A stretch of DNA of 64,000 bases, taken from a virus. The stretch lies in the IMG/VR virus record IMGVR_UViG_3300028706_000553, one strand, 5' to 3'. The position numbers were made by a program, and so were the translations under genes. The notes below the pieces were generated by a model. That model did no database searches. It was given only the letters and a program-made list of their open reading frames with translations, and was not told where the DNA came from. Positions 52,345-61,036 of the stretch are shown here, in pieces; within the stretch, counting starts at the first letter, position 1, and the number at the start of each line of letters is the position of its first letter.

Positions 52345-53339
52345 TGTTAGGACAATATTGGTATCACGGATTAACAAGAAAATATGTTTCTATATTTGGA
52401 ACCATTTTTAACGACATCTATTTAAAGCGTAAGAATGCTTCTGATGAATTTGTCGAAACATTAAAAGTTCCCTTAGCATACGGTCCGAAACAAAAATTTA
52501 TGACTAGGATCTCGGGCGATGCTAATCTAGACAAAAAGGTGGGGATGCAACTGCCGAGGATGGGCTTCGAGATGACTTCCATGTCATACAGTCCCGAGAG
52601 AATGTTGCATCCCCTTAACCAACAAAAATCAATGTGGAAGGGTCAAATTGGAGTAGTTAAAAGTCCAGTACCATATGATTACGCTTTCACATTGTCAGTG
52701 TTTGTAAAAAATGCGGATGACGGAACACAAATAATTGAACAGATAGTACCGTTTTTTCAACCCGATTTTACAGTAACTATAAATGCACTTCCAACAATGG
52801 GAATCAAGTTAGATGTTCCTATTATTTTAAATGGTGTTAATATTGAAGATTCATATGAAGGTGATTATCAAACACGAAGAGCAATAGTTTGGACATTAGA
52901 TTTTACAGTTAAGGGTTTTCTTTATCCGAATATTAAAGGTAAAGGATTTGGTGACGGTAGTGATGATCAGGCAACAGCATTAATACGCACATCAATTATC
53001 AATTTTCATATAATGCCGTATAGAGATCCAGGCTCGGTAGACGCCGAAAGAATTTTATTAGAATCAGATACAGGGTTTGGAAAAGGTAGGGATGAAATAT
53101 TAAATGAAGATGATTCCAAAATGTTATTAGAAACAACTAGAACAGATATTAATGCAACATTAGTAAAATCAAGATTTACATCTAAAGTACCTATAGATGT
53201 ACCAGCTGGCGATGATTATTATGAACCAACAGAAACAAGAGATTTCTTTGCAGAAGGTCTTGAATGGGATCCAGCTACAGGTACTGATACAATGGGTGGT
53301 ACATTAGATATAAACGCATTCGGTAATTCAAACAAATGA
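52344..53339 (+). CDS. gp15: tail sheath stabiliser / terminator gp15
   Basis: MLGQYWYH, FGTIFNDI, VPLAYGPKQKF, LPRMGFEM, QIIEQIVPFFQP, DSYEGDY..RR.I.WTLDF. Confidence 0.96.
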   Translation: MLGQYWYHGLTRKYVSIFGTIFNDIYLKRKNASDEFVETLKVPLAYGPKQKFMTRISGDANLDKKVGMQLPRMGFEMTSMSYSPERMLHPLNQQKSMWKGQIGVVKSPVPYDYAFTLSVFVKNADDGTQIIEQIVPFFQPDFTVTINALPTMGIKLDVPIILNGVNIEDSYEGDYQTRRAIVWTLDFTVKGFLYPNIKGKGFGDGSDDQATALIRTSIINFHIMPYRDPGSVDAERILLESDTGFGKGRDEILNEDDSKMLLETTRTDINATLVKSRFTSKVPIDVPAGDDYYEPTETRDFFAEGLEWDPATGTDTMGGTLDINAFGNSNK

Positions 53340-53791
53340 TTAAAGATAAAATGGAAACTATTGAAAATATTGATAAGCAGGTTGACCCTAAAACGGTTGA
53401 TACAAAATTAGATGAGGTATTTGAGATTACACCAACATCTAAAAATGAACCTGTTGTATATAAAAAACCAGAAGTGAATGATGATGGAATGGATACTGAT
53501 TTTCAGTATGCACGAGAAAATATATATAATGTGATAGAGAGAGGGTCTGACGCCATGGAGGGCTTACTTGAAGTAGCTAGGGAAACAGAACACCCGAGAG
53601 CATACGAAGTAGTAGGTCAGTTAGTTGATAAGTTAACAAATGCAAATAAAGAGTTAATGGGATTACATAAAACAAAAAAAAGCATGTCAGATGAAGTCGT
53701 AAGGTCACCTCAAAATGTTACTAACGCACTATTTGTAGGGAGTACAGCTGATCTTCAGAAGATGCTGAAACAGAAATCTAAGGAGGCGTAA
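53336..53791 (+). CDS. gp16: terminase small subunit gp16
   Basis: DFQYARENIY..IERG.DA...L.EVA.E.EHPRAYEV, NALFVGSTADLQKML. Confidence 0.95.
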   Translation: MIKDKMETIENIDKQVDPKTVDTKLDEVFEITPTSKNEPVVYKKPEVNDDGMDTDFQYARENIYNVIERGSDAMEGLLEVARETEHPRAYEVVGQLVDKLTNANKELMGLHKTKKSMSDEVVRSPQNVTNALFVGSTADLQKMLKQKSKEA

Positions 53792-53793
53792 GC

Positions 53794-54144
53794 GTGGAAT
53801 CGCTATTCAGTGCGGTAAATATAACAATGTTTGGGATTATATTATTTTCCTCATTGTTCATATTTCTATTCAACTACAGACACGATAATAAAGACAAGTA
53901 TCAGGGCAAGTATTCTCTAATTGTATTTGATCTTTTCATTAACATGGGTATGTCAATTACTGGTTATATTTTAGTATGGCTAGTATTTGAAAACGTTCCA
54001 CAATTAGCTCCATTTAACACTTATAGATTTCCAGTAGGATATATGTTTGGTTTGACTTCTAATATAAGCATTCCAATTGTTTTGAAGTGGTTTACATCAC
54101 AAATCACTAAAAAGTTAAATGAAGCAGTGAAGAAAGGAGTATAA
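53794..54144 (+). CDS. small multi-pass membrane protein (holin-like)
   Basis: GTG start with RBS AGGAGG; three hydrophobic stretches and a basic C-terminus. Confidence 0.6.
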   Translation: MESLFSAVNITMFGIILFSSLFIFLFNYRHDNKDKYQGKYSLIVFDLFINMGMSITGYILVWLVFENVPQLAPFNTYRFPVGYMFGLTSNISIPIVLKWFTSQITKKLNEAVKKGV

Positions 54145-54602
54145 TGGCGGTAAAACCTAAACAAACTACTGCTCCTGAAGAAGTTGCGGACGAACATGTC
54201 GAGGTAATGGAATTAGAACCAGTAAAAGCCATTGAAATAGAAACTAAAAATCTAGTAGCATCAAGTAGAATATTCATATACACTATAATAGGATTACTGG
54301 CATATTTAATTTTCTTAGTAATACCAGATATTTCCGAGAAGGTTACATGGGTGGAAAAGGATCTTAATTCTGTATTAGTACAATCAGAAAGATTCAAAAA
54401 ATCCACCAGAGTATTTGCAAGAGATAATCAATGTGCATCTTGTCACTTAGAGCCTGATTATCTTCTTCATAATCTCTTAACGAAGTATCCTAGTTTTTCA
54501 GATATTAAATCATTTATGTCTGTAGGACATCAACGATATTATACAATGACTCAACCTATATCAGATGCTGAACTCTTAGCAATTTATAGGACTTTACAAT
54601 GA
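54144..54602 (+). CDS. membrane-anchored monohaem c-type cytochrome-like protein
   Basis: One TM helix (IFIYTIIGLLAYLIFLVI), CxxCH (CASCH, 54432-54446), candidate distal Met/His, and C-terminal ISDAELLAIY helix typical of class I cytochromes c. Confidence 0.7.
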   Translation: MAVKPKQTTAPEEVADEHVEVMELEPVKAIEIETKNLVASSRIFIYTIIGLLAYLIFLVIPDISEKVTWVEKDLNSVLVQSERFKKSTRVFARDNQCASCHLEPDYLLHNLLTKYPSFSDIKSFMSVGHQRYYTMTQPISDAELLAIYRTLQ

Positions 54603-55720
54603 TCATGGTTGGCAAACTTCTTGCATTTTTAATATTTTTAGTTATATCAGCATATCCCGGTAAAGCCAAAGATTCTCCTCATGATCGTACTGGCGCAGTA
54701 GTTAGCAAAATAAAACAAATAGAATACATTCCAACATATGGATCAACGTTTAAAAGAGTAAAAGAACGTGGTCATATAATATGTGGTGCCAAAGATTCTA
54801 TGCCAGGTTTTGGAGAAGAGCTTTGGGATGCAGAAACAGGCGTATTAAAATTTCAGGGCTTTGATATAGATATTTGTAGGGCAATTGCTACTGCAGTATT
54901 CGGAGATAAGGAAAAGGTTGAATATGAAATAATAGATGGTAAAACAAGATTTAGTTATTTAATAGATGGAACGGTTGATGTGGTATCGGCTACTGTTACA
55001 TACACATATACTAGAAATGTTCTTAAAAAATTAGAGTTCATGCCCACTACATATTATGATGGACAAGGATTTATTGTTCGAAAGACTCTTGGTGTATCAT
55101 CTGCAAAGCAAATGGATGGTGCAAGAATATGTTATAGTTCAACCGGAACTGCCGCAAAAAATACTAAGGATTTTTTTACAAAACATTTTCTTAATTATGT
55201 TCCAGTTGTGGTGCCAGTTGGAGAAAAATCTAAAGATTATTACTTAGATCGTAAATGTGATATGTATGGCACAGATCGCTCCGGTTTAGCATCTAATAGA
55301 ATTGGTTTTAAAAATCCGGAACAACATGTGATCCTTCCAGAAATTATTTCAAAAGAACCTCTTGGTCCAGTAGTAAAATATGGAGATCAACAATGGTCTG
55401 ATATTGTAAGGTGGACAATATATGTTCTGTTCATTGCAGAAGAAATGGGATTAAATTCAAATAATATATCTAAATTTAAAAATAATATAGATCCAAGTAT
55501 ACAACGATTTATGGGCGAATTAAATGGTAATGATCATCCTCATCTAGGGGCTAAATTAGGATTAGATGCTACATGGGCATATGAAGTTATTAAACAAGTT
55601 GGAAATTATAAAGAAATATATGAAAGAAATCTTGGTGAAAATACACCTCTAGCTCTTAAACGTGGGCTAAATAAATTGTACACTGAAGGTGGTTTATTAT
55701 ATGCACCTCCATTAAAATAG
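54599..55720 (+). CDS. aapJ: general L-amino acid ABC transporter substrate-binding protein (AapJ/BztA-like)
   Basis: Signal peptide; GFDIDICRAIA.AVFGD, YYDGQGF, EIISKEPLGP.V..GDQQW.DIVRW, QVGNY.EIYERN, GGLLYAPP. Confidence 0.92.
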   Translation: MIMVGKLLAFLIFLVISAYPGKAKDSPHDRTGAVVSKIKQIEYIPTYGSTFKRVKERGHIICGAKDSMPGFGEELWDAETGVLKFQGFDIDICRAIATAVFGDKEKVEYEIIDGKTRFSYLIDGTVDVVSATVTYTYTRNVLKKLEFMPTTYYDGQGFIVRKTLGVSSAKQMDGARICYSSTGTAAKNTKDFFTKHFLNYVPVVVPVGEKSKDYYLDRKCDMYGTDRSGLASNRIGFKNPEQHVILPEIISKEPLGPVVKYGDQQWSDIVRWTIYVLFIAEEMGLNSNNISKFKNNIDPSIQRFMGELNGNDHPHLGAKLGLDATWAYEVIKQVGNYKEIYERNLGENTPLALKRGLNKLYTEGGLLYAPPLK

Positions 55721-56084: not shown

Positions 56085-56309
56085 ATGTCTTGGATTGGGA
56101 ATATAATTAAAAAAGTTTTTAAAAATGAAGGTTTAAAACAACCAGAACCTGAACCTAAAAAAGCTGAGAAAAAAGTAAAAAAGAAAAATTTGAAAAGTAT
56201 GACAAAAAAACAATTAGAGTCATACGGTAGAGAATTAGGTGTCGAATTGGATAGACGACATAATAAAGCTAAATTAATTGCACGACTGGAAGAGGCGGTT
56301 GCAAATTAA
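56085..56309 (+). CDS. small protein with Rho-N / HeH-like helical domain
   Basis: LKSMTKKQLESYGRELGVELDRRHNKAKLI resembles the Rho N-terminal / SAP-HeH motif. Confidence 0.55.
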   Translation: MSWIGNIIKKVFKNEGLKQPEPEPKKAEKKVKKKNLKSMTKKQLESYGRELGVELDRRHNKAKLIARLEEAVAN

Positions 56310-56583
56310 TAATACAATAAAAGAGTATTGGCGCGATTGGGCTGCACTCGTTTATTTGTTTATCTGCTTAGTAGATTTTTTTGTAGCGCCTTTGATATGG
56401 AACTTAATGATGGCGGAATATTGTGACACACATGATTGTATAAAAGAAGGTGTAACACGATGGATTCCTTTGACACTTGAAAGTGGCGCCATGTTTCATC
56501 TTTCATTCGGAGCAATCCTTGGTGCAACGTCATTTAATAAACATAAAGAGATTCACGCTAGCACTAAGTCTACTGATACTTAG
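56299..56583 (+). CDS. holin-like membrane protein
   Basis: WAALVYLFICLVDFFVAP and W.PLTL..GAMFHLSFGAILG pattern; likely TTG start at 56299 behind GAGG (ORF track starts at 56278). Confidence 0.55.
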   Translation: MQINNTIKEYWRDWAALVYLFICLVDFFVAPLIWNLMMAEYCDTHDCIKEGVTRWIPLTLESGAMFHLSFGAILGATSFNKHKEIHASTKSTDT

Positions 56584-57265
56584 TGGATGTGCTGAAAATA
56601 AAACTGATTCAAATAATGATCTTGATAGTGGAGATAAATCAAATCTACCAGTCACAATATCATCTCTGATTGAACACGCAGAGTATTGTAAAGTAATTTA
56701 CGATAGTGGTGGTAATCAAAAAGATGAAGTTGCATTTGATGTAAAACAAGATAGTGGAATAACAATAATTATTATTAGGGGCACTGCCAATGCAGAAAAT
56801 GTCCAATCTGATATTGATGTAAGATTAGTAGATGATGCAGTCACAGGAATCAAACTTCATAAAGGATTCAGAGATGCGTCTTTAGGTGTTATGGAGATTA
56901 TTGATAGAGATCATACAGTTGAACATACTGTACATATTACAGGTCACAGTTTAGGTGGAGCTATTTCACAAATAATAGGAATGTGGCTTCATAAAAGAGG
57001 TCACAATGTTCAAATCTATTCTTACGGATCACCAAAAGTTACTTATCAAATTATGTCTGGAGGACAGCCCACTCATTGGCGTGTGGTTCGTCTTAGCGAT
57101 CCTATCCCTTTTACTCCTCCCTGGCCTTATGCTCATACCGGTCTTTTTATAGATAGTCAGACTTTAGATTGGGGTCCAGATAATGATAATGGATTAATTT
57201 CTCAAACAGATGGCTTGACTCACGCCATAGCAAAATATGTGGAAACATTGAAAGCCGCTCAATGA
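56522..57265 (+). CDS. lipoprotein, class 3 lipase (alpha/beta hydrolase)
   Basis: GTG start gives a signal peptide II ending LILSG-C (lipobox); IIIRGT, LHKGF, ITGHSLGG (GxSxG), YSYGSP, DPIP. ORF track starts at 56477. Confidence 0.8.
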   Translation: MQRHLINIKRFTLALSLLILSGCAENKTDSNNDLDSGDKSNLPVTISSLIEHAEYCKVIYDSGGNQKDEVAFDVKQDSGITIIIIRGTANAENVQSDIDVRLVDDAVTGIKLHKGFRDASLGVMEIIDRDHTVEHTVHITGHSLGGAISQIIGMWLHKRGHNVQIYSYGSPKVTYQIMSGGQPTHWRVVRLSDPIPFTPPWPYAHTGLFIDSQTLDWGPDNDNGLISQTDGLTHAIAKYVETLKAAQ

Positions 57266-57984
57266 AGGGTGAAGAAAGACCTTACTTAAAAAAATATGGA
57301 ATAGAAGAAAAGGTTAACCCATTTGAAAACATTCCAGAAGATAGAACAGCCGTAGATAACATTTTAAGAGTGAATCACGGTAATCAAATGAGATTAAACT
57401 TGATGGCTGATGCTAAAGCTAATATTATGATTACTGTTTCTTCTATTGTTTTTTCAGTCACTATAGCTAATTTAGATAATGAAATAATGAAATGGCCTTT
57501 AATAACATTTGCAGTTGGAAACTTTTTTACATTATTATTTGCCATATTTGCAATTATTCCAAAAACAGCTTATCCTAAGCTACCACATTCCAATGAAATT
57601 GATAGAAAATCGCCTTGGTTTAATCCTTTATTTTTCGGACATTTTGCACATATTGATATTGATGAATATAAAAAAGATTACGCAGAAAAATTGTTGACTG
57701 ATGATAAAATATATGATACTATGGTAGGAGATATATATGGCCAAGGAAAAGTACTTGCACTTAGTAAATATAAGTATCTCAAATGGTCATATAATTGTTT
57801 TCTTGGAGGGATGGCATCAGCAATGGCAGTTTTTGCATTACAAGGGGCTGCAGCAGATTTTATATTAGAGTATGGATTATGGTTAAAAGATATTATATTT
57901 GAGGAAATATCATTTACTTTTGATGGACTGAGAGAAGTAGCCTGTCAAATAAGTACTCCATGTCGACAGAAATATAACTTATAA
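57262..57984 (+). CDS. Pycsar-type membrane effector domain protein (PycTM/DUF5706-like)
   Basis: LMADAKANIMITVSS, second TM ending FAIIP, NPLFFGHFA...EY, DIYGQGKVLA..KYKYLKWSY plus third TM: the DUF5706 pattern as I recall it. Confidence 0.75.
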   Translation: MKGEERPYLKKYGIEEKVNPFENIPEDRTAVDNILRVNHGNQMRLNLMADAKANIMITVSSIVFSVTIANLDNEIMKWPLITFAVGNFFTLLFAIFAIIPKTAYPKLPHSNEIDRKSPWFNPLFFGHFAHIDIDEYKKDYAEKLLTDDKIYDTMVGDIYGQGKVLALSKYKYLKWSYNCFLGGMASAMAVFALQGAAADFILEYGLWLKDIIFEEISFTFDGLREVACQISTPCRQKYNL

Positions 57985-57987
57985 ATA
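57980..57987 (+). promoter_or_regulatory. T4-type late promoter
   Basis: Exact TATAAATA upstream of the 58019 membrane gene. Confidence 0.7.
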
Positions 57988-58018: not shown

Positions 58019-58399
58019 ATGAGTATATTGAATAGAAGTAAACGTCAAGGTGACGATAAAATAAATACTGTTAAGGAATTGATTATTACATCAGAAGATA
58101 AATTATGGGAAAGTGATCCAATGAAAGCATTGACATTTGAAGGTACGGAACGTCGCAAAAAATTGAACTGGTGGACAAGAACATTTTTATCCATTGTTAT
58201 AGTTCTTACTTTTTTATTCTTAGTGTGGTTACTCTTTATGGAGGACCTGCCTGATGCATCTCGCGATTTAATAAATATAATGACCGGGGCGTATGTGGCG
58301 GTACTCGCCAAAGCAACGGACTACTGGTTCAAAGATAAAGATGATCCAGAACACAAAGAAACAGAACGAGAATTAGCAAAAGATGCTAGCGTAAGCTAA
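58019..58399 (+). CDS. two-TM membrane protein (holin-like)
   Basis: TM1 FLSIVIVLTFLFLVWLLF, short loop, TM2 INIMTGAYVAVLA followed by DYWF. Confidence 0.6.
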   Translation: MSILNRSKRQGDDKINTVKELIITSEDKLWESDPMKALTFEGTERRKKLNWWTRTFLSIVIVLTFLFLVWLLFMEDLPDASRDLINIMTGAYVAVLAKATDYWFKDKDDPEHKETERELAKDASVS

Positions 58400-58427
58400 T
58401 AAATTAAAATCTAAAAAAAGTAAAGCT

Positions 58428-58703
58428 ATGTCTTTAGAAAAAGAAAATTTAGAGGCCCATGTTGACTTATGTGCGGAGAGGTACCAGCGCTTGGAAGAAA
58501 AGTATCAACTGCTGAAAGATACTATTGATAAAAGTAATACGGTTATTCACGAAAGAATTTCCAAAATGAAAGATAGTATGGACGAAATGAAAGCATTATC
58601 AATAGAACAACATTTTAAACTAAATAGAATAATAATAACTACTGCTGTTGCTGTTATAGGTACTATTGTTGCCGCAGTTATTCAACAGTTGATCCATAAT
58701 TAG
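58428..58703 (+). CDS. coiled-coil protein with C-terminal TM anchor
   Basis: LEAHVDLCAERY coiled-coil followed by IIITTAVAVIGTIVAAVI. Confidence 0.65.
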   Translation: MSLEKENLEAHVDLCAERYQRLEEKYQLLKDTIDKSNTVIHERISKMKDSMDEMKALSIEQHFKLNRIIITTAVAVIGTIVAAVIQQLIHN

Positions 58704-58709
58704 GTTAAT

Positions 58710-59177
58710 ATGTTAACATTGATTGATATAATAGAAGAAGAACTAGATGAATTATTAGAGCTTGAAGAAGATCTTGCTGAAGATGGTTTAACTTTAGAAG
58801 ATTTCTATGAGTGGACTGATCAATTAGATGAAAAAGAATCCCAAGCAAATTATATTAATAGAATGAAAAAATTGGGTAGAAAAGCCAGACGTATAAACAA
58901 GTTATCTTCAACGAAAAGAAAAAAGAAAAGATCTCAATTAAGACGAAAGACTGCTGCTAAGATTCAAAAATCAGCCCTACGTAAGGCCCAAGGTGATGTA
59001 ATACCAAAAGCAGTAATGAAGGCTACAGGTACTGGTGGAATGATTAAAAGAAAAAGATGGAAAGAAATGAAAAAGAAAATGGTTGATAGAAAGAAAGTAG
59101 TAAAAGCCCGTGAAGTTAAAAGAGGCGAACCCGCAAGGATGAAAGCAGCCCGTAGATCAATGGCCAAACGAGGATAA
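58710..59177 (+). CDS. acidic N-terminus / highly basic C-terminus protein, candidate DNA-binding internal protein
   Basis: Glu/Asp-rich first 45 aa, then an Arg/Lys-rich remainder. Confidence 0.6.
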   Translation: MLTLIDIIEEELDELLELEEDLAEDGLTLEDFYEWTDQLDEKESQANYINRMKKLGRKARRINKLSSTKRKKKRSQLRRKTAAKIQKSALRKAQGDVIPKAVMKATGTGGMIKRKRWKEMKKKMVDRKKVVKAREVKRGEPARMKAARRSMAKRG

Positions 59178-59179
59178 AT

Positions 59180-59383
59180 ATGCATCATATTTCAGTAAAA
59201 GAAAAAATTGAACATACAAAGTCATACAGTTCTGATGGTGGAAGAAATGTTCGTAAAGTTATAAAAAAAAGAATTGTTTCCCGAAGAAGGACCGCAGTCA
59301 CAGAATCAGGTGCTGAATTATTGAAAACCGCTCCAAAAGATGAAAACGGTCAAACCAATTGGAAAAAAATAATGAATAGCTAA
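59180..59383 (+). CDS. small hypothetical protein
   Basis: 67-aa ORF abutting the gp17 start. Confidence 0.5.
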   Translation: MHHISVKEKIEHTKSYSSDGGRNVRKVIKKRIVSRRRTAVTESGAELLKTAPKDENGQTNWKKIMNS

Positions 59384-61036
59384 ATGCCAAGTACACATTA
59401 TCTCGGAAATCCAAAATTAAAATCTGCTAATGTTCCAGTAGAATTTGCTGAAGAAGAATTAGCTGAGTATATAAAATGTCAAAGTGATCCTGTATATTTT
59501 ATTAAAAAATATGTAAAGATTATTCATGTTGATAAAGGCTTAGTGCCTTTTGATCTATATTCTTTTCAAGAGAATATGGTAGAGACATTTCACGACAATA
59601 GATTCGTGATTTGTAAGATGCCACGACAGTCTGGTAAGTCAACCACTATTATTGCATTCTTTTTACATTACATACTTTTTAATGAAAATGTACAAGTAGG
59701 TATTCTTGCTAATAAAGGTTCACTCGCTAGAGAATTATTAGATAGATTAAAACTATCTTATGAAAATTTACCCATGTGGTTACAGCAGGGTATTTTAGCA
59801 TGGAATAAAGGTAATATAGAATTAGAGAATGGTTCAAAAGTATTAGCGGCTGCTACATCATCATCCGCGGTACGGGGATCATCATTTAATATAATCTTCC
59901 TAGACGAGTTCGCCCACGTTCCAAAAGAATTAGCAGAAGAATTTTTTACTTCAGTATATCCAACTATTTCTTCTGGGCAAACTACCAAAGTCTTTATTGT
60001 ATCTACACCTTTAGGGTTAAATCAATTCTATAAGATGTGGGTTGATGCAGAAGAAAAAAGAAGTAATTATATACCTATAGATGTTCATTGGTCTGAAATT
60101 CCAGGTAGAGATTCAAAATGGAAAGAAGAGACCATTCGAAATACCAGTGAAAGACAATTTTCACAAGAATTCGAAACTGAATTTGTTGGTAGTACACAGA
60201 CACTTATAGCAGGTTCTAAATTAAGACAATTGCCGTTTAAGACACCAATACATTCGCAAGAAAATATTGATATATTTGAAAATCCAATAGAAAAACATTC
60301 GTATACTATATGTGTTGATACGGCAAGAGGACAGGGATTAGATTATTCCGCACTTACAGTTATAGATTCAACTGAAGTCCCTTATAAACTTGTAGCGAAA
60401 TATAGATGTGATACTATATCACCTTTACTATATCCTAACATAATTTATAAAATAGCTAAACATTATAATGAGGCATATGTATTAGTTGAAGTAAATGATA
60501 TAGGCGAACAGGTAGCAGTTACCTTACACCAAGATTTAGAATATGAAAATATGATGATGATGACTTGGAAAGGCAGAGGCGGACAACAGCTGGGCGGTGG
60601 GTTTGGTAAAAATGCTCAGTGGGGTGTAAGAACTACTAAACAAGTTAAACGTTTAGGATGTGCTACATTAAAGAGTTTAATCGAAGAAGATAAGTTAGTT
60701 ATTACAGATTATGATGTAATATATGAACTTACTTCATTTTCAGCAAGAAAAGATTCATACGAAGCTGAAGAAGGTCATCATGATGACTTAGTAATCACGT
60801 TAGTCATCTTTGCGTGGTTAACTAATCAAGAATATTATAAAGAATTAACAGATGTAGATTTACGTGAAAAGATGTACTCAGAAAAAATGAAAGAAATTGA
60901 AGAAAGCTATTTACCGTTTGGAATTATAGATGATGGATTGGAAGAAGAAGAAATCGTCGATAATGAAGGAAATAGGTGGCAAGTTGACCGAACCAATAGA
61001 GTTTTAGAAGATACAGGTCATCATACTTTTTTCTGA
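59384..61036 (+). CDS. gp17: terminase large subunit gp17
   Basis: YLGNPKLK, KMPRQSGKST (Walker A), LDEFAH (Walker B), FSQEFE, VDTARG, HHDDLV. Confidence 0.98.
   Translation: MPSTHYLGNPKLKSANVPVEFAEEELAEYIKCQSDPVYFIKKYVKIIHVDKGLVPFDLYSFQENMVETFHDNRFVICKMPRQSGKSTTIIAFFLHYILFNENVQVGILANKGSLARELLDRLKLSYENLPMWLQQGILAWNKGNIELENGSKVLAAATSSSAVRGSSFNIIFLDEFAHVPKELAEEFFTSVYPTISSGQTTKVFIVSTPLGLNQFYKMWVDAEEKRSNYIPIDVHWSEIPGRDSKWKEETIRNTSERQFSQEFETEFVGSTQTLIAGSKLRQLPFKTPIHSQENIDIFENPIEKHSYTICVDTARGQGLDYSALTVIDSTEVPYKLVAKYRCDTISPLLYPNIIYKIAKHYNEAYVLVEVNDIGEQVAVTLHQDLEYENMMMMTWKGRGGQQLGGGFGKNAQWGVRTTKQVKRLGCATLKSLIEEDKLVITDYDVIYELTSFSARKDSYEAEEGHHDDLVITLVIFAWLTNQEYYKELTDVDLREKMYSEKMKEIEESYLPFGIIDDGLEEEEIVDNEGNRWQVDRTNRVLEDTGHHTFF

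Follow-up and report, generated by a model that had tools for sequence, protein, structure and literature searches.

A PycTM-family membrane protein without a cyclase closes a conserved envelope cassette of marine phages

The gene and its product

The gene considered here lies on a 64,000-nucleotide stretch of viral DNA, called the window below, from IMG/VR record IMGVR_UViG_3300028706_000553. It encodes a PycTM-family membrane protein which the original prediction, made from the sequence, took for a Pycsar defence effector put to new use by a phage. Our results lead elsewhere: the gene is no isolated defence effector that a phage happened to capture, and it belongs to a conserved cassette of envelope genes, a membership that the original prediction had missed.

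57262..57984, + strand: PycTM-family (PF18967, 'pJV1-SpdB3-like 3TM') membrane protein of 240 amino acids with an ATG start, from the list of open reading frames (ORFs)

The ORF, the hydropathy profile, the structure model and the family alignment agree on the description first given of this product, a 240-residue protein with three transmembrane (TM) helices and the pattern ADxKA...FFG...Y...KY. The ATG overlaps the stop codon of an upstream lipase ORF (56477..57265) as ATGA, by which the PycTM gene is translationally coupled to the lipase gene. Assignment to the PycTM (DUF5706) family was equally sound. The Pfam match to PF18967 covers residues 75-182 and scores 71.7 bits (cut-off 27.2), a six-frame search gives 73 bits, and the PADLOC PycTM model PDLC02364 matches at 8.4e-15; the PADLOC 'Effector 2TM' models of CBASS match more weakly, at 1.4e-08 and worse. 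No family for the protein was found in PHROGs or NCBIfam, and a sequence search of the PDB found nothing.

In the family alignment the blocks MADAKANIM, FNPLFFGHF, DIYGQGKVL and KYKYLKWSY are recognized in the phage protein. Residues D50, K52 and K169, invariant among 81 aligned family members, are all present, and so are R36, A49, A53, A94, P100, F124, F125, L165, Y177 and G183, which at least 90% of those members keep. The ratio of non-synonymous to synonymous substitution rates (dN/dS) against three 95%-identical relatives is 0.14, and residues 21-185 hardly vary among 121 homologues, some of them as little as 53% identical; because of this ratio and this near-invariant core, the ORF is a genuine gene maintained by purifying selection. 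Every sequence and fold feature tested marks its product as a full-length PF18967 member.

A conserved envelope cassette

Upstream on the same strand lie the other three members of the cassette.

53794..54144, + strand: orfA, cassette gene 1, a multi-TM (3-TM) protein of 116 amino acids, from hydropathy and conserved gene order
54144..54602, + strand: orfB, cassette gene 2, 152 amino acids, a periplasmic domain on a single TM anchor, from hydropathy and conservation
54599..55720, + strand: cassette gene 3, a secreted SBP_bac_3 solute-binding protein (SBP) of 373 amino acids (PF00497, 2.2e-11)

The order orfA-orfB-SBP-PycTM is found in every relative with enough upstream DNA, even where the PycTM proteins are only 52-55% identical, and in nearly all relatives the SBP gene stands immediately 5' of the PycTM gene. 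An independent anchor gave the same picture: orfB, of all the partners the best conserved, has 184 relatives in IMG/VR, 80 of whose loci were fetched, and PycTM comes after SBP in all 54 that have downstream room, the remaining 26 ending at contig edges. PycTM is the obligate fourth and last gene of a conserved phage envelope cassette.

All of the cassette partners are membrane or periplasm proteins. For orfA no family match was found. The SBP scores 121 bits against TIGR01096, under the cut-off of 256, and begins with a hydrophobic signal or anchor segment; it is a divergent two-lobe binding protein of the polar-amino-acid type, the core of which is invariant across the phage homologues. In orfB a haem-c-type motif, C97-A-x-C100-H101, is invariant, with M125 and H129 conserved as well. 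Its ESM Atlas clusters, of up to 670 members, are viral only and give a weak lead to cytochrome c; a SoxA/TsdA cytochrome c profile matches weakly (E = 0.017), and the AlphaFold2 model (pLDDT 58) was too poor for a fold search. It is from the invariant CAxCH and these weak profile and Atlas leads, and from nothing else, that we weakly suggest a cytochrome c-like protein. A phage c-type cytochrome-like protein would need the Ccm system of its host.

Absence of a cyclase

The source record comprises 167,436 bp and is rated 100% complete by CheckV. That the window holds no cyclase had been recognized at the outset, and the statement extends to the complete genome, where Pfam searches gave no match to PF00211 (class III cyclase), SMODS/CD-NTase, GGDEF, CYTH or cNMP_binding, and where the PADLOC PycC models PDLC02369, PDLC00762 and PDLC02368 gave none either. 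These dedicated models were added because PF00211 missed most of the PADLOC-confirmed PycC proteins in the control set described below, for which reason it was dropped as the sole cyclase detector. A phmmer search with two confirmed PycC sequences against all frames of the genome and of 106 related phage loci (865 kb) returned nothing at E <= 10, while its positive control worked. A second complete relative (G404, 134.5 kb) has no PF00211 match, and no cyclase was seen in the phage loci that carry precomputed Pfam annotation. A cognate cyclase elsewhere, which would have turned the gene into part of an ordinary Pycsar system, was accordingly not found in the complete genome. Since the defining cyclase partnership was looked for and is missing, the phage protein is not part of a Pycsar, Pucsar or CBASS system; for CBASS in particular, no SMODS domain was found in the genome.

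A cyclase-independent branch of PF18967

The nearest cellular relatives, located by means of a 13-sequence alignment, form a set of about 70 proteins with 32-46% identity to the phage protein. One ORF on each side was scanned for these, and 1.5 kb on each side for a control, which consisted of 400 genomes sampled from one bacterial class, 19 of them with PF18967 (a tally that includes G042, the locus of which was left out). None of the 118 neighbour ORFs of the nearest relatives is a PycC or a CD-NTase; Pfam assigns such neighbours to housekeeping families such as PrmC, and in three of the genomes class III cyclases are absent or lie hundreds of kb away. At the 19 control loci of PF18967-bearing bacteria, PADLOC recognizes PycC in just three neighbour ORFs. 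Two of these, at control loci L124 and L126 of one gammaproteobacterial genome (G012), belong to confirmed PycC-PycTM pairs. The short PycC proteins of this genome are scored by PADLOC at 1e-102 to 1e-124 and are evidently missed by PF00211 at E <= 1e-5, an indication that cyclase searches relying on PF00211 alone under-call Pycsar.

The genuine Pycsar effectors of these two pairs score 49 and 35 bits against PF18967, lower than the phage protein, and are without most of a signature (LR-x-x-x-Q, MAD-x-KAN, N-x-LFFGHF, DIY-x-x-G-x-VL and KY-x-YL-x-x-SY) that the phage and cyclase-less proteins have in common. In a quick maximum-likelihood tree the phage clade is monophyletic (support 99) and groups with the cyclase-less cellular proteins (support 87), the Pycsar effectors sitting on long branches elsewhere. 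The tree is indicative only. Several of the rows labelled 'near' are badly extracted ORFs on long branches, and row 'orphan_L052' of the comparison alignment, a wrong ORF (PrmC), was left out of account. To judge from signature and tree, the phage clade belongs to a cyclase-independent branch of PF18967. The notion of a Pycsar effector put to new use thus loses its footing: the nearest relatives have no cyclase beside them, and the genuine effectors lack the signature.

Set beside the PycTM and PucTM effectors, the phage protein shares PF18967, the three TM helices, the helical cytosolic region that separates TM2 from TM3, the AD-x-KA before TM1, the proline ending TM2, and the FFG and K-Y-x-x-L-x-x-SY blocks. 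It differs in being encoded by a phage of lytic type with no cyclase beside the gene or in the genome, in its position within a cyclase-less branch, in a tail of about 45 residues with a C-x5-C motif, and in its three obligate periplasm-facing partners. Stand-alone cellular PF18967 proteins, for example from Arenimonas, Lysobacterales, Thermoanaerobaculia and cyanobacterial metagenome-assembled genomes (MAGs), are closer: they are 32-46% identical to it over residues 16-194 or so, carry signature blocks of the phage type and have no adjacent cyclase. Unlike the phage protein, they are only about 170-200 amino acids long and almost tail-less, with varied or housekeeping neighbours and neither an SBP nor a cytochrome partner.

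These relationships bear on the proposal that the protein senses cyclic mononucleotides made by host cyclases, either as a dominant-negative form or sponge acting against Pycsar or Pucsar, or as a weapon triggered by a host signal. Family membership, intact cytosolic motifs and the want of a cyclase of its own are compatible with such a role, and phages do counter Pycsar with nucleases and with sponges (PMC13712596). The known sponges, however, are small soluble proteins (PMC13712596), whereas the phage PycTM is embedded in the membrane by three conserved TM helices and has obligate partners in the envelope, features that set it outside the nucleotide sponges. Its closest cellular relatives are not linked to cyclases, the genuine Pycsar PycTM proteins are so divergent that mixed oligomers or a matched ligand specificity are unlikely, and the obligate link to the SBP and the cytochrome-like protein would go unexplained. 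We consider this proposal very improbable; the decoy or sponge form of it, one of the options first offered, is opposed by the cassette linkage.

Elsewhere in the family the PycTM domain occurs in other company. It is also fused to N-terminal HD phosphohydrolase or EF-hand domains (P0264, P0235) or to domains of no known kind, the ESM Atlas lists a 736-amino-acid architecture of DUF3616 plus PycTM, and two ORFs of the control set (L115, L120) have cNMP_binding domains; the PycTM pore module is combined with many different sensor domains. A search for longer fused forms gave a single chimeric-looking match.

Topology, structure model and C-terminal tail

The protein divides into the following parts.

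57418..57474, + strand: TM1 (residues ~53-71), from hydropathy and model helix 29-69
57493..57561, + strand: TM2 (residues ~78-100), with the near-invariant P100 at its end, from hydropathy and model helix 77-98
57562..57792, + strand: cytosolic loop domain (residues ~101-177) with FNPLFFGHF, DIYGQGKVL and KYKYLKWSY, from conservation
57793..57855, + strand: TM3 (residues ~178-198), within model helix 147-230, from the family alignment
57856..57981, + strand: phage-clade-specific C-terminal tail (residues 199-240), absent from canonical members

At a Kyte-Doolittle threshold of 1.6, the hydropathy profile yields two TM helices (residues 53-71 and 81-99), and the third (~178-198) was placed from the model. 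The AlphaFold2 model (pLDDT 90.7) has helices at 29-69, 77-98, 133-143 and 147-230 and beta bridges in the loop; a cytosolic helix runs into TM1 (29-69), and the long helix 147-230 contains TM3 and extends well past it. The motif A49-D50-x-K52-A53, labelled invariant, precedes TM1 at the cytosolic face of the membrane, and the 12 Lys and Arg residues of the loop domain fit the positive-inside rule. The nearest ESM Atlas structures are PycTM clusters (TM-score 0.75). Foldseek gave no match at E <= 0.001 in the PDB and BFVD, the PDB copy being evidently without the PucTM cryo-EM structure.

EcPucTM has been described as crossing the membrane by three TM helices, with helical and beta regions in the cytosol, and as forming a hexamer whose channel of about 15 Å has TM2 as its lining (preprint 10.64898/2026.08.12.744502). 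By homology, TM2 of the phage protein may likewise line a pore. Because of the charge distribution and the published EcPucTM topology, the C-terminus, and with it the tail, is probably in the periplasm. Canonical PF18967 members have a median of 5 residues after TM3, and the phage clade has about 45 more. The tail varies in sequence except at E215, G222, C228, S231, C234 and R235; the two cysteines, spaced as C-x5-C, do not vary among 32 clade members, those of the branch at 53% identity among them. A complex prediction combining this tail with the mature SBP and the periplasmic domain of orfB scored 0.00 against a mark of 0.32, the fold of the partner being itself uncertain, and weighs neither way on binding.

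Core and tail compare differently with close relatives. Against one relative (L005, 6522-7241), the core of the window gene is near-identical (dN 0.010), while its last 46 codons have diverged strongly (dN 0.165, dS 0.146); against three others (L002-L004) the tail is identical and the differences lie in the core. A near-identical core joined to a diverged tail indicates recombination at the core/tail boundary, with a probable breakpoint near the junction, and a mosaic gene.

A fast-evolving mosaic tail is what would be expected of a conflict interface, and it brings in another possible role, in which the protein would serve conflict between phages or the control of superinfection, as a membrane effector with periplasmic sensors that kills or closes the cell upon attack by a second phage or that sets lysis inhibition in the manner of RI and T of phage T4. 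Among the options first offered it is akin to the weapon against co-infecting phages, though its trigger would be periplasmic. T4 senses superinfection in the periplasm via T and RI, and on our reasoning all partners of the phage PycTM face that same compartment; PF18967 proteins, moreover, serve abortive infection in bacteria. The likeness to T4, a functional one that we infer, comprises a phage inner-membrane protein, a periplasmic C-terminal part and co-encoded periplasmic proteins, whereas the phage PycTM has no sequence or fold relationship to T and no adjacent endolysin. Nothing direct speaks for this role; the extreme conservation of the core and the depth of the synteny are unlike the typical fast-turnover conflict islands, and binding proteins and cytochromes have no known part in sensing phages. 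We judge a function in inter-phage conflict or superinfection control distinctly unlikely.

Distribution of the phage clade

A word-indexed search returned 1,625 relatives of the phage PycTM (protein clusters), more than 100 of them at 67% identity or above, all from marine metagenomes. An exhaustive search at the level of 50% clusters collapses the clade to very few clusters, followed by proteins of 30-44% identity and about 180-200 amino acids; in the ESM Atlas it is a mostly viral cluster with an automatic name only. Homologues in other phages thus exist among these marine relatives and at the 184 cassette loci of IMG/VR, but not among deposited phages: tblastn against 50,697 deposited phage genomes, among them cultured pelagiphages, methylophages and cyanomyophages, found no relative of PycTM or of the cassette. 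Because it is absent from these genomes, the cassette is an accessory of one lineage and not a general lysis system of marine T4-like phages.

Contigs L027-L030 carry the phage cassette and have been placed in marine MAGs with the labels Chloroflexota, Nitrososphaerales and Flavobacteriaceae/Flavobacteriales; the cause is almost certainly mis-binning of phage contigs. In the published literature we found no description of PF18967/DUF5706 proteins in phages beyond defence reviews, none of the cassette, and nothing on DUF5706 itself. In a survey of pelagimyophages, gp16, binding protein, lipase, cytochrome and holin all go unmentioned (PMC7029224).

Gene neighbourhood

The cassette and its surroundings in the window include these further features.

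53336..53791, + strand: gp16-like small terminase, upstream border of the island (PF11053, 7.3e-09)
56278..56583, + strand: o101, optional cassette companion, a single-TM protein of 101 amino acids, from the ORF list and hydropathy
56477..57265, + strand: class 3 lipase with lipobox LILSGC (PF01764, 3.6e-15; phrog_21992)
57980..57987, + strand: TATAAATA, T4 late-promoter-like, overlapping the PycTM stop codon, from a motif scan
59384..61036, + strand: gp17-like large terminase (TerL), downstream border of the island, 59% identical to cyanophage and Melnitz TerL

With a large terminase about 59% identical to TerL of T4-like cyanophages and of the Methylophilales phage Melnitz, and with genes for T4 gp13, gp14, gp15, gp16, sheath, tube and portal on neighbouring contigs, the source is a marine T4-like myovirus.

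In about 13 loci the pair of o101 and lipase comes after PycTM; in the lineage of the window it comes before. The lipobox was read from the sequence, and the true start of the lipase is likely a TTG or GTG at about 56519. Wherever the pair was seen (the window, L137, L161, L162, L173, L174, L190 and L201), the o101 ORF reaches about 60-110 nt into the beginning of the gene for the lipoprotein class 3 lipase, a layout that recalls the overlapped gene pairs of i-spanin and o-spanin.

Between PycTM and TerL (58019-59383) lie four small ORFs: o126, with one TM segment (phrog_9990/1544), o91, which is tail-anchored and has a coiled coil, the extremely basic o155, and o67. All four are kept in the closest relatives and are absent from most cassette phages, where TerL begins some 15-45 bp after PycTM. 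The motif TATAAATA at 57980 probably marks the end of a transcription unit. A scan for sigma-70 promoters and terminators gave matches below chance.

In many phages the cassette lies between gp16 and gp17, and in others it stands among auxiliary genes (PhoH, NifU, Thy1, phosphoribosyltransferases, ribosomal protein S21); because of these differing positions, it is taken to move as a unit, as the constant gene order also shows. One 31-kb contig (L011, JGI 3300009593) has an unusually rich auxiliary set: S21, PhoH and NifU/Fe-S genes beside the cassette, an apparently complete ATP-binding cassette (ABC) transporter with Bmp and NMT1 binding proteins, ATPase and permease, and genes for phosphoribosyl pyrophosphate synthetase, orotidine monophosphate decarboxylase and phosphoenolpyruvate carboxykinase.

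Such company suggests that the cassette could itself be an auxiliary envelope or metabolic module that remodels uptake or membrane energetics of the host during infection, the SBP capturing an amino-acid-like solute, the cytochrome-like orfB tapping periplasmic electron flow, and PycTM acting as a gated channel or membrane organizer and not as a pore that kills. The full two-lobe architecture of the SBP with its invariant core, the CAxCH retained by orfB, the proximity of auxiliary metabolic genes in several phages, in one of them with a complete ABC transporter on the contig, and the lineage-specific, accessory nature of the cassette would all fit. Yet no PF18967 member is known as a transporter, the known members being toxic pores (PMC4447253; preprint 10.64898/2026.08.12.744502). 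A binding protein, furthermore, needs a permease and an ATPase, neither of which is in the cassette, and the recurrent lipoprotein lipase and the position at the terminase genes are hard to explain by uptake. On balance we regard a module of this kind as unlikely, though worth keeping in view.

Interpretation

The reading that we favour, and hold tentatively as a good possibility, is that of a holin-like pore in the inner membrane which needs no cyclase and takes its regulation from the periplasm. It is suggested by four facts taken together, namely that the core of the family has been kept, that there is no cyclase, that a tail has been gained, and that three inseparable partners face the periplasm. 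The obligate linkage to an envelope cassette, which disfavours a decoy or sponge, likewise favours a membrane pore under the control of the phage. In this scheme, PycTM would be expressed alongside the late genes for packaging and neck. By homology with the EcPucTM hexamer, it would form an oligomeric pore in the inner membrane, with TM2 as the lining. The phage would use this pore as its own regulated membrane-permeabilizing device, holin-like or timing lysis. The cassette partners would control it from the periplasmic side, in place of a cyclic nucleotide from a Pycsar cyclase, and the lipoprotein lipase may provide an outer-membrane step. Pore formation, late expression, periplasmic control and a role in lysis are thus each putative. 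Of the options first offered, the signal-gated holin comes closest to this phage-controlled pore; the pore part of it survives here, whereas there is no evidence for its cyclic-nucleotide gate.

As a small, phage-encoded inner-membrane protein with at least one TM segment, the product has the attributes of the holin class, its holin activity being putative. A holin-endolysin lysis cassette is not seen around it, the lipoprotein lipase alone being adjacent. Across the two complete genomes of the lineage (G000 and G404), T4 holin T is not recognizable, and the endolysin families PF00959 (Phage_lysozyme), PF01464 (SLT), PF01510 (Amidase_2), PF13539 (Peptidase_M15_4) and PF01551 (Peptidase_M23) were not detected; because neither holin T nor a common endolysin can be recognized there, the lysis genes of the lineage are unassigned. 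This vacancy, the position between gp16 and gp17 in many loci, the recurrence of the o101-lipase pair to one side or the other of PycTM, and the occurrence of TATAAATA directly after the gene speak for the proposed pore.

A precedent for a membrane protein of a mobile element that serves an end other than defence is SpdB3 of Streptomyces, which is highly toxic in Escherichia coli and acts in a multiprotein membrane complex of its plasmid (PMC4447253). The two systems have in common a mobile-element membrane protein that works in a multiprotein envelope complex, with toxicity on expression, outside defence. They differ in that SpdB3 serves the spreading of DNA in mycelia, and their kinship, with SpdB3 as namesake of the family, is taken from the Pucsar preprint alone (10.64898/2026.08.12.744502).

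Several points weigh against a periplasm-regulated lysis pore. An endolysin is neither next to the cassette nor recognizable in the genome, so that the usual adjacency of holin and endolysin is missing, and the restriction of the cassette to one lineage and its occurrence among auxiliary genes point the same way. A binding protein of the amino-acid type and a cytochrome c-like protein would sooner suggest metabolism than lysis. Late expression would follow from gene position, its single basis, and the late-promoter motif is not enriched, with 10 matches in the window against 13.6 expected, most of them at gene boundaries. The conserved cytosolic motifs are intact, and gating may therefore be by a cytosolic small molecule. 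The support of 87 for the grouping with cyclase-less proteins is modest, and the tree a quick one.

A more specific form of the pore reading, and a rather improbable one, is a new lysis clock, in which a PycTM-type hexameric pore would be gated externally through its C-x5-C tail by nutrient signals, received by the SBP, and by redox or respiration signals, received by the cytochrome-like protein, with the lipase replacing the spanin step.

Conclusions

The label 'Pycsar effector' on PF18967 over-reaches, for a whole well-conserved branch of the family is cyclase-independent, and annotation of such genes in the style of defence finders will mislead in phages and cells alike. The pairing of a PycTM-fold pore with periplasmic binding-protein and cytochrome-like partners is one for which we found no description in the literature searched; if the link to these partners is functional, it would imply a mode of gating other than by cytosolic cyclic nucleotides. 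The cassette is common in marine viromes, and knowledge of its role would fill a gap in our picture of what abundant ocean phages do with the envelope of their hosts. Should the lysis clock prove true, the timing of lysis by abundant ocean phages would depend on the environment or the state of the host, and the 'Pycsar effector' fold would be a general gated pore that phages have recruited independently.

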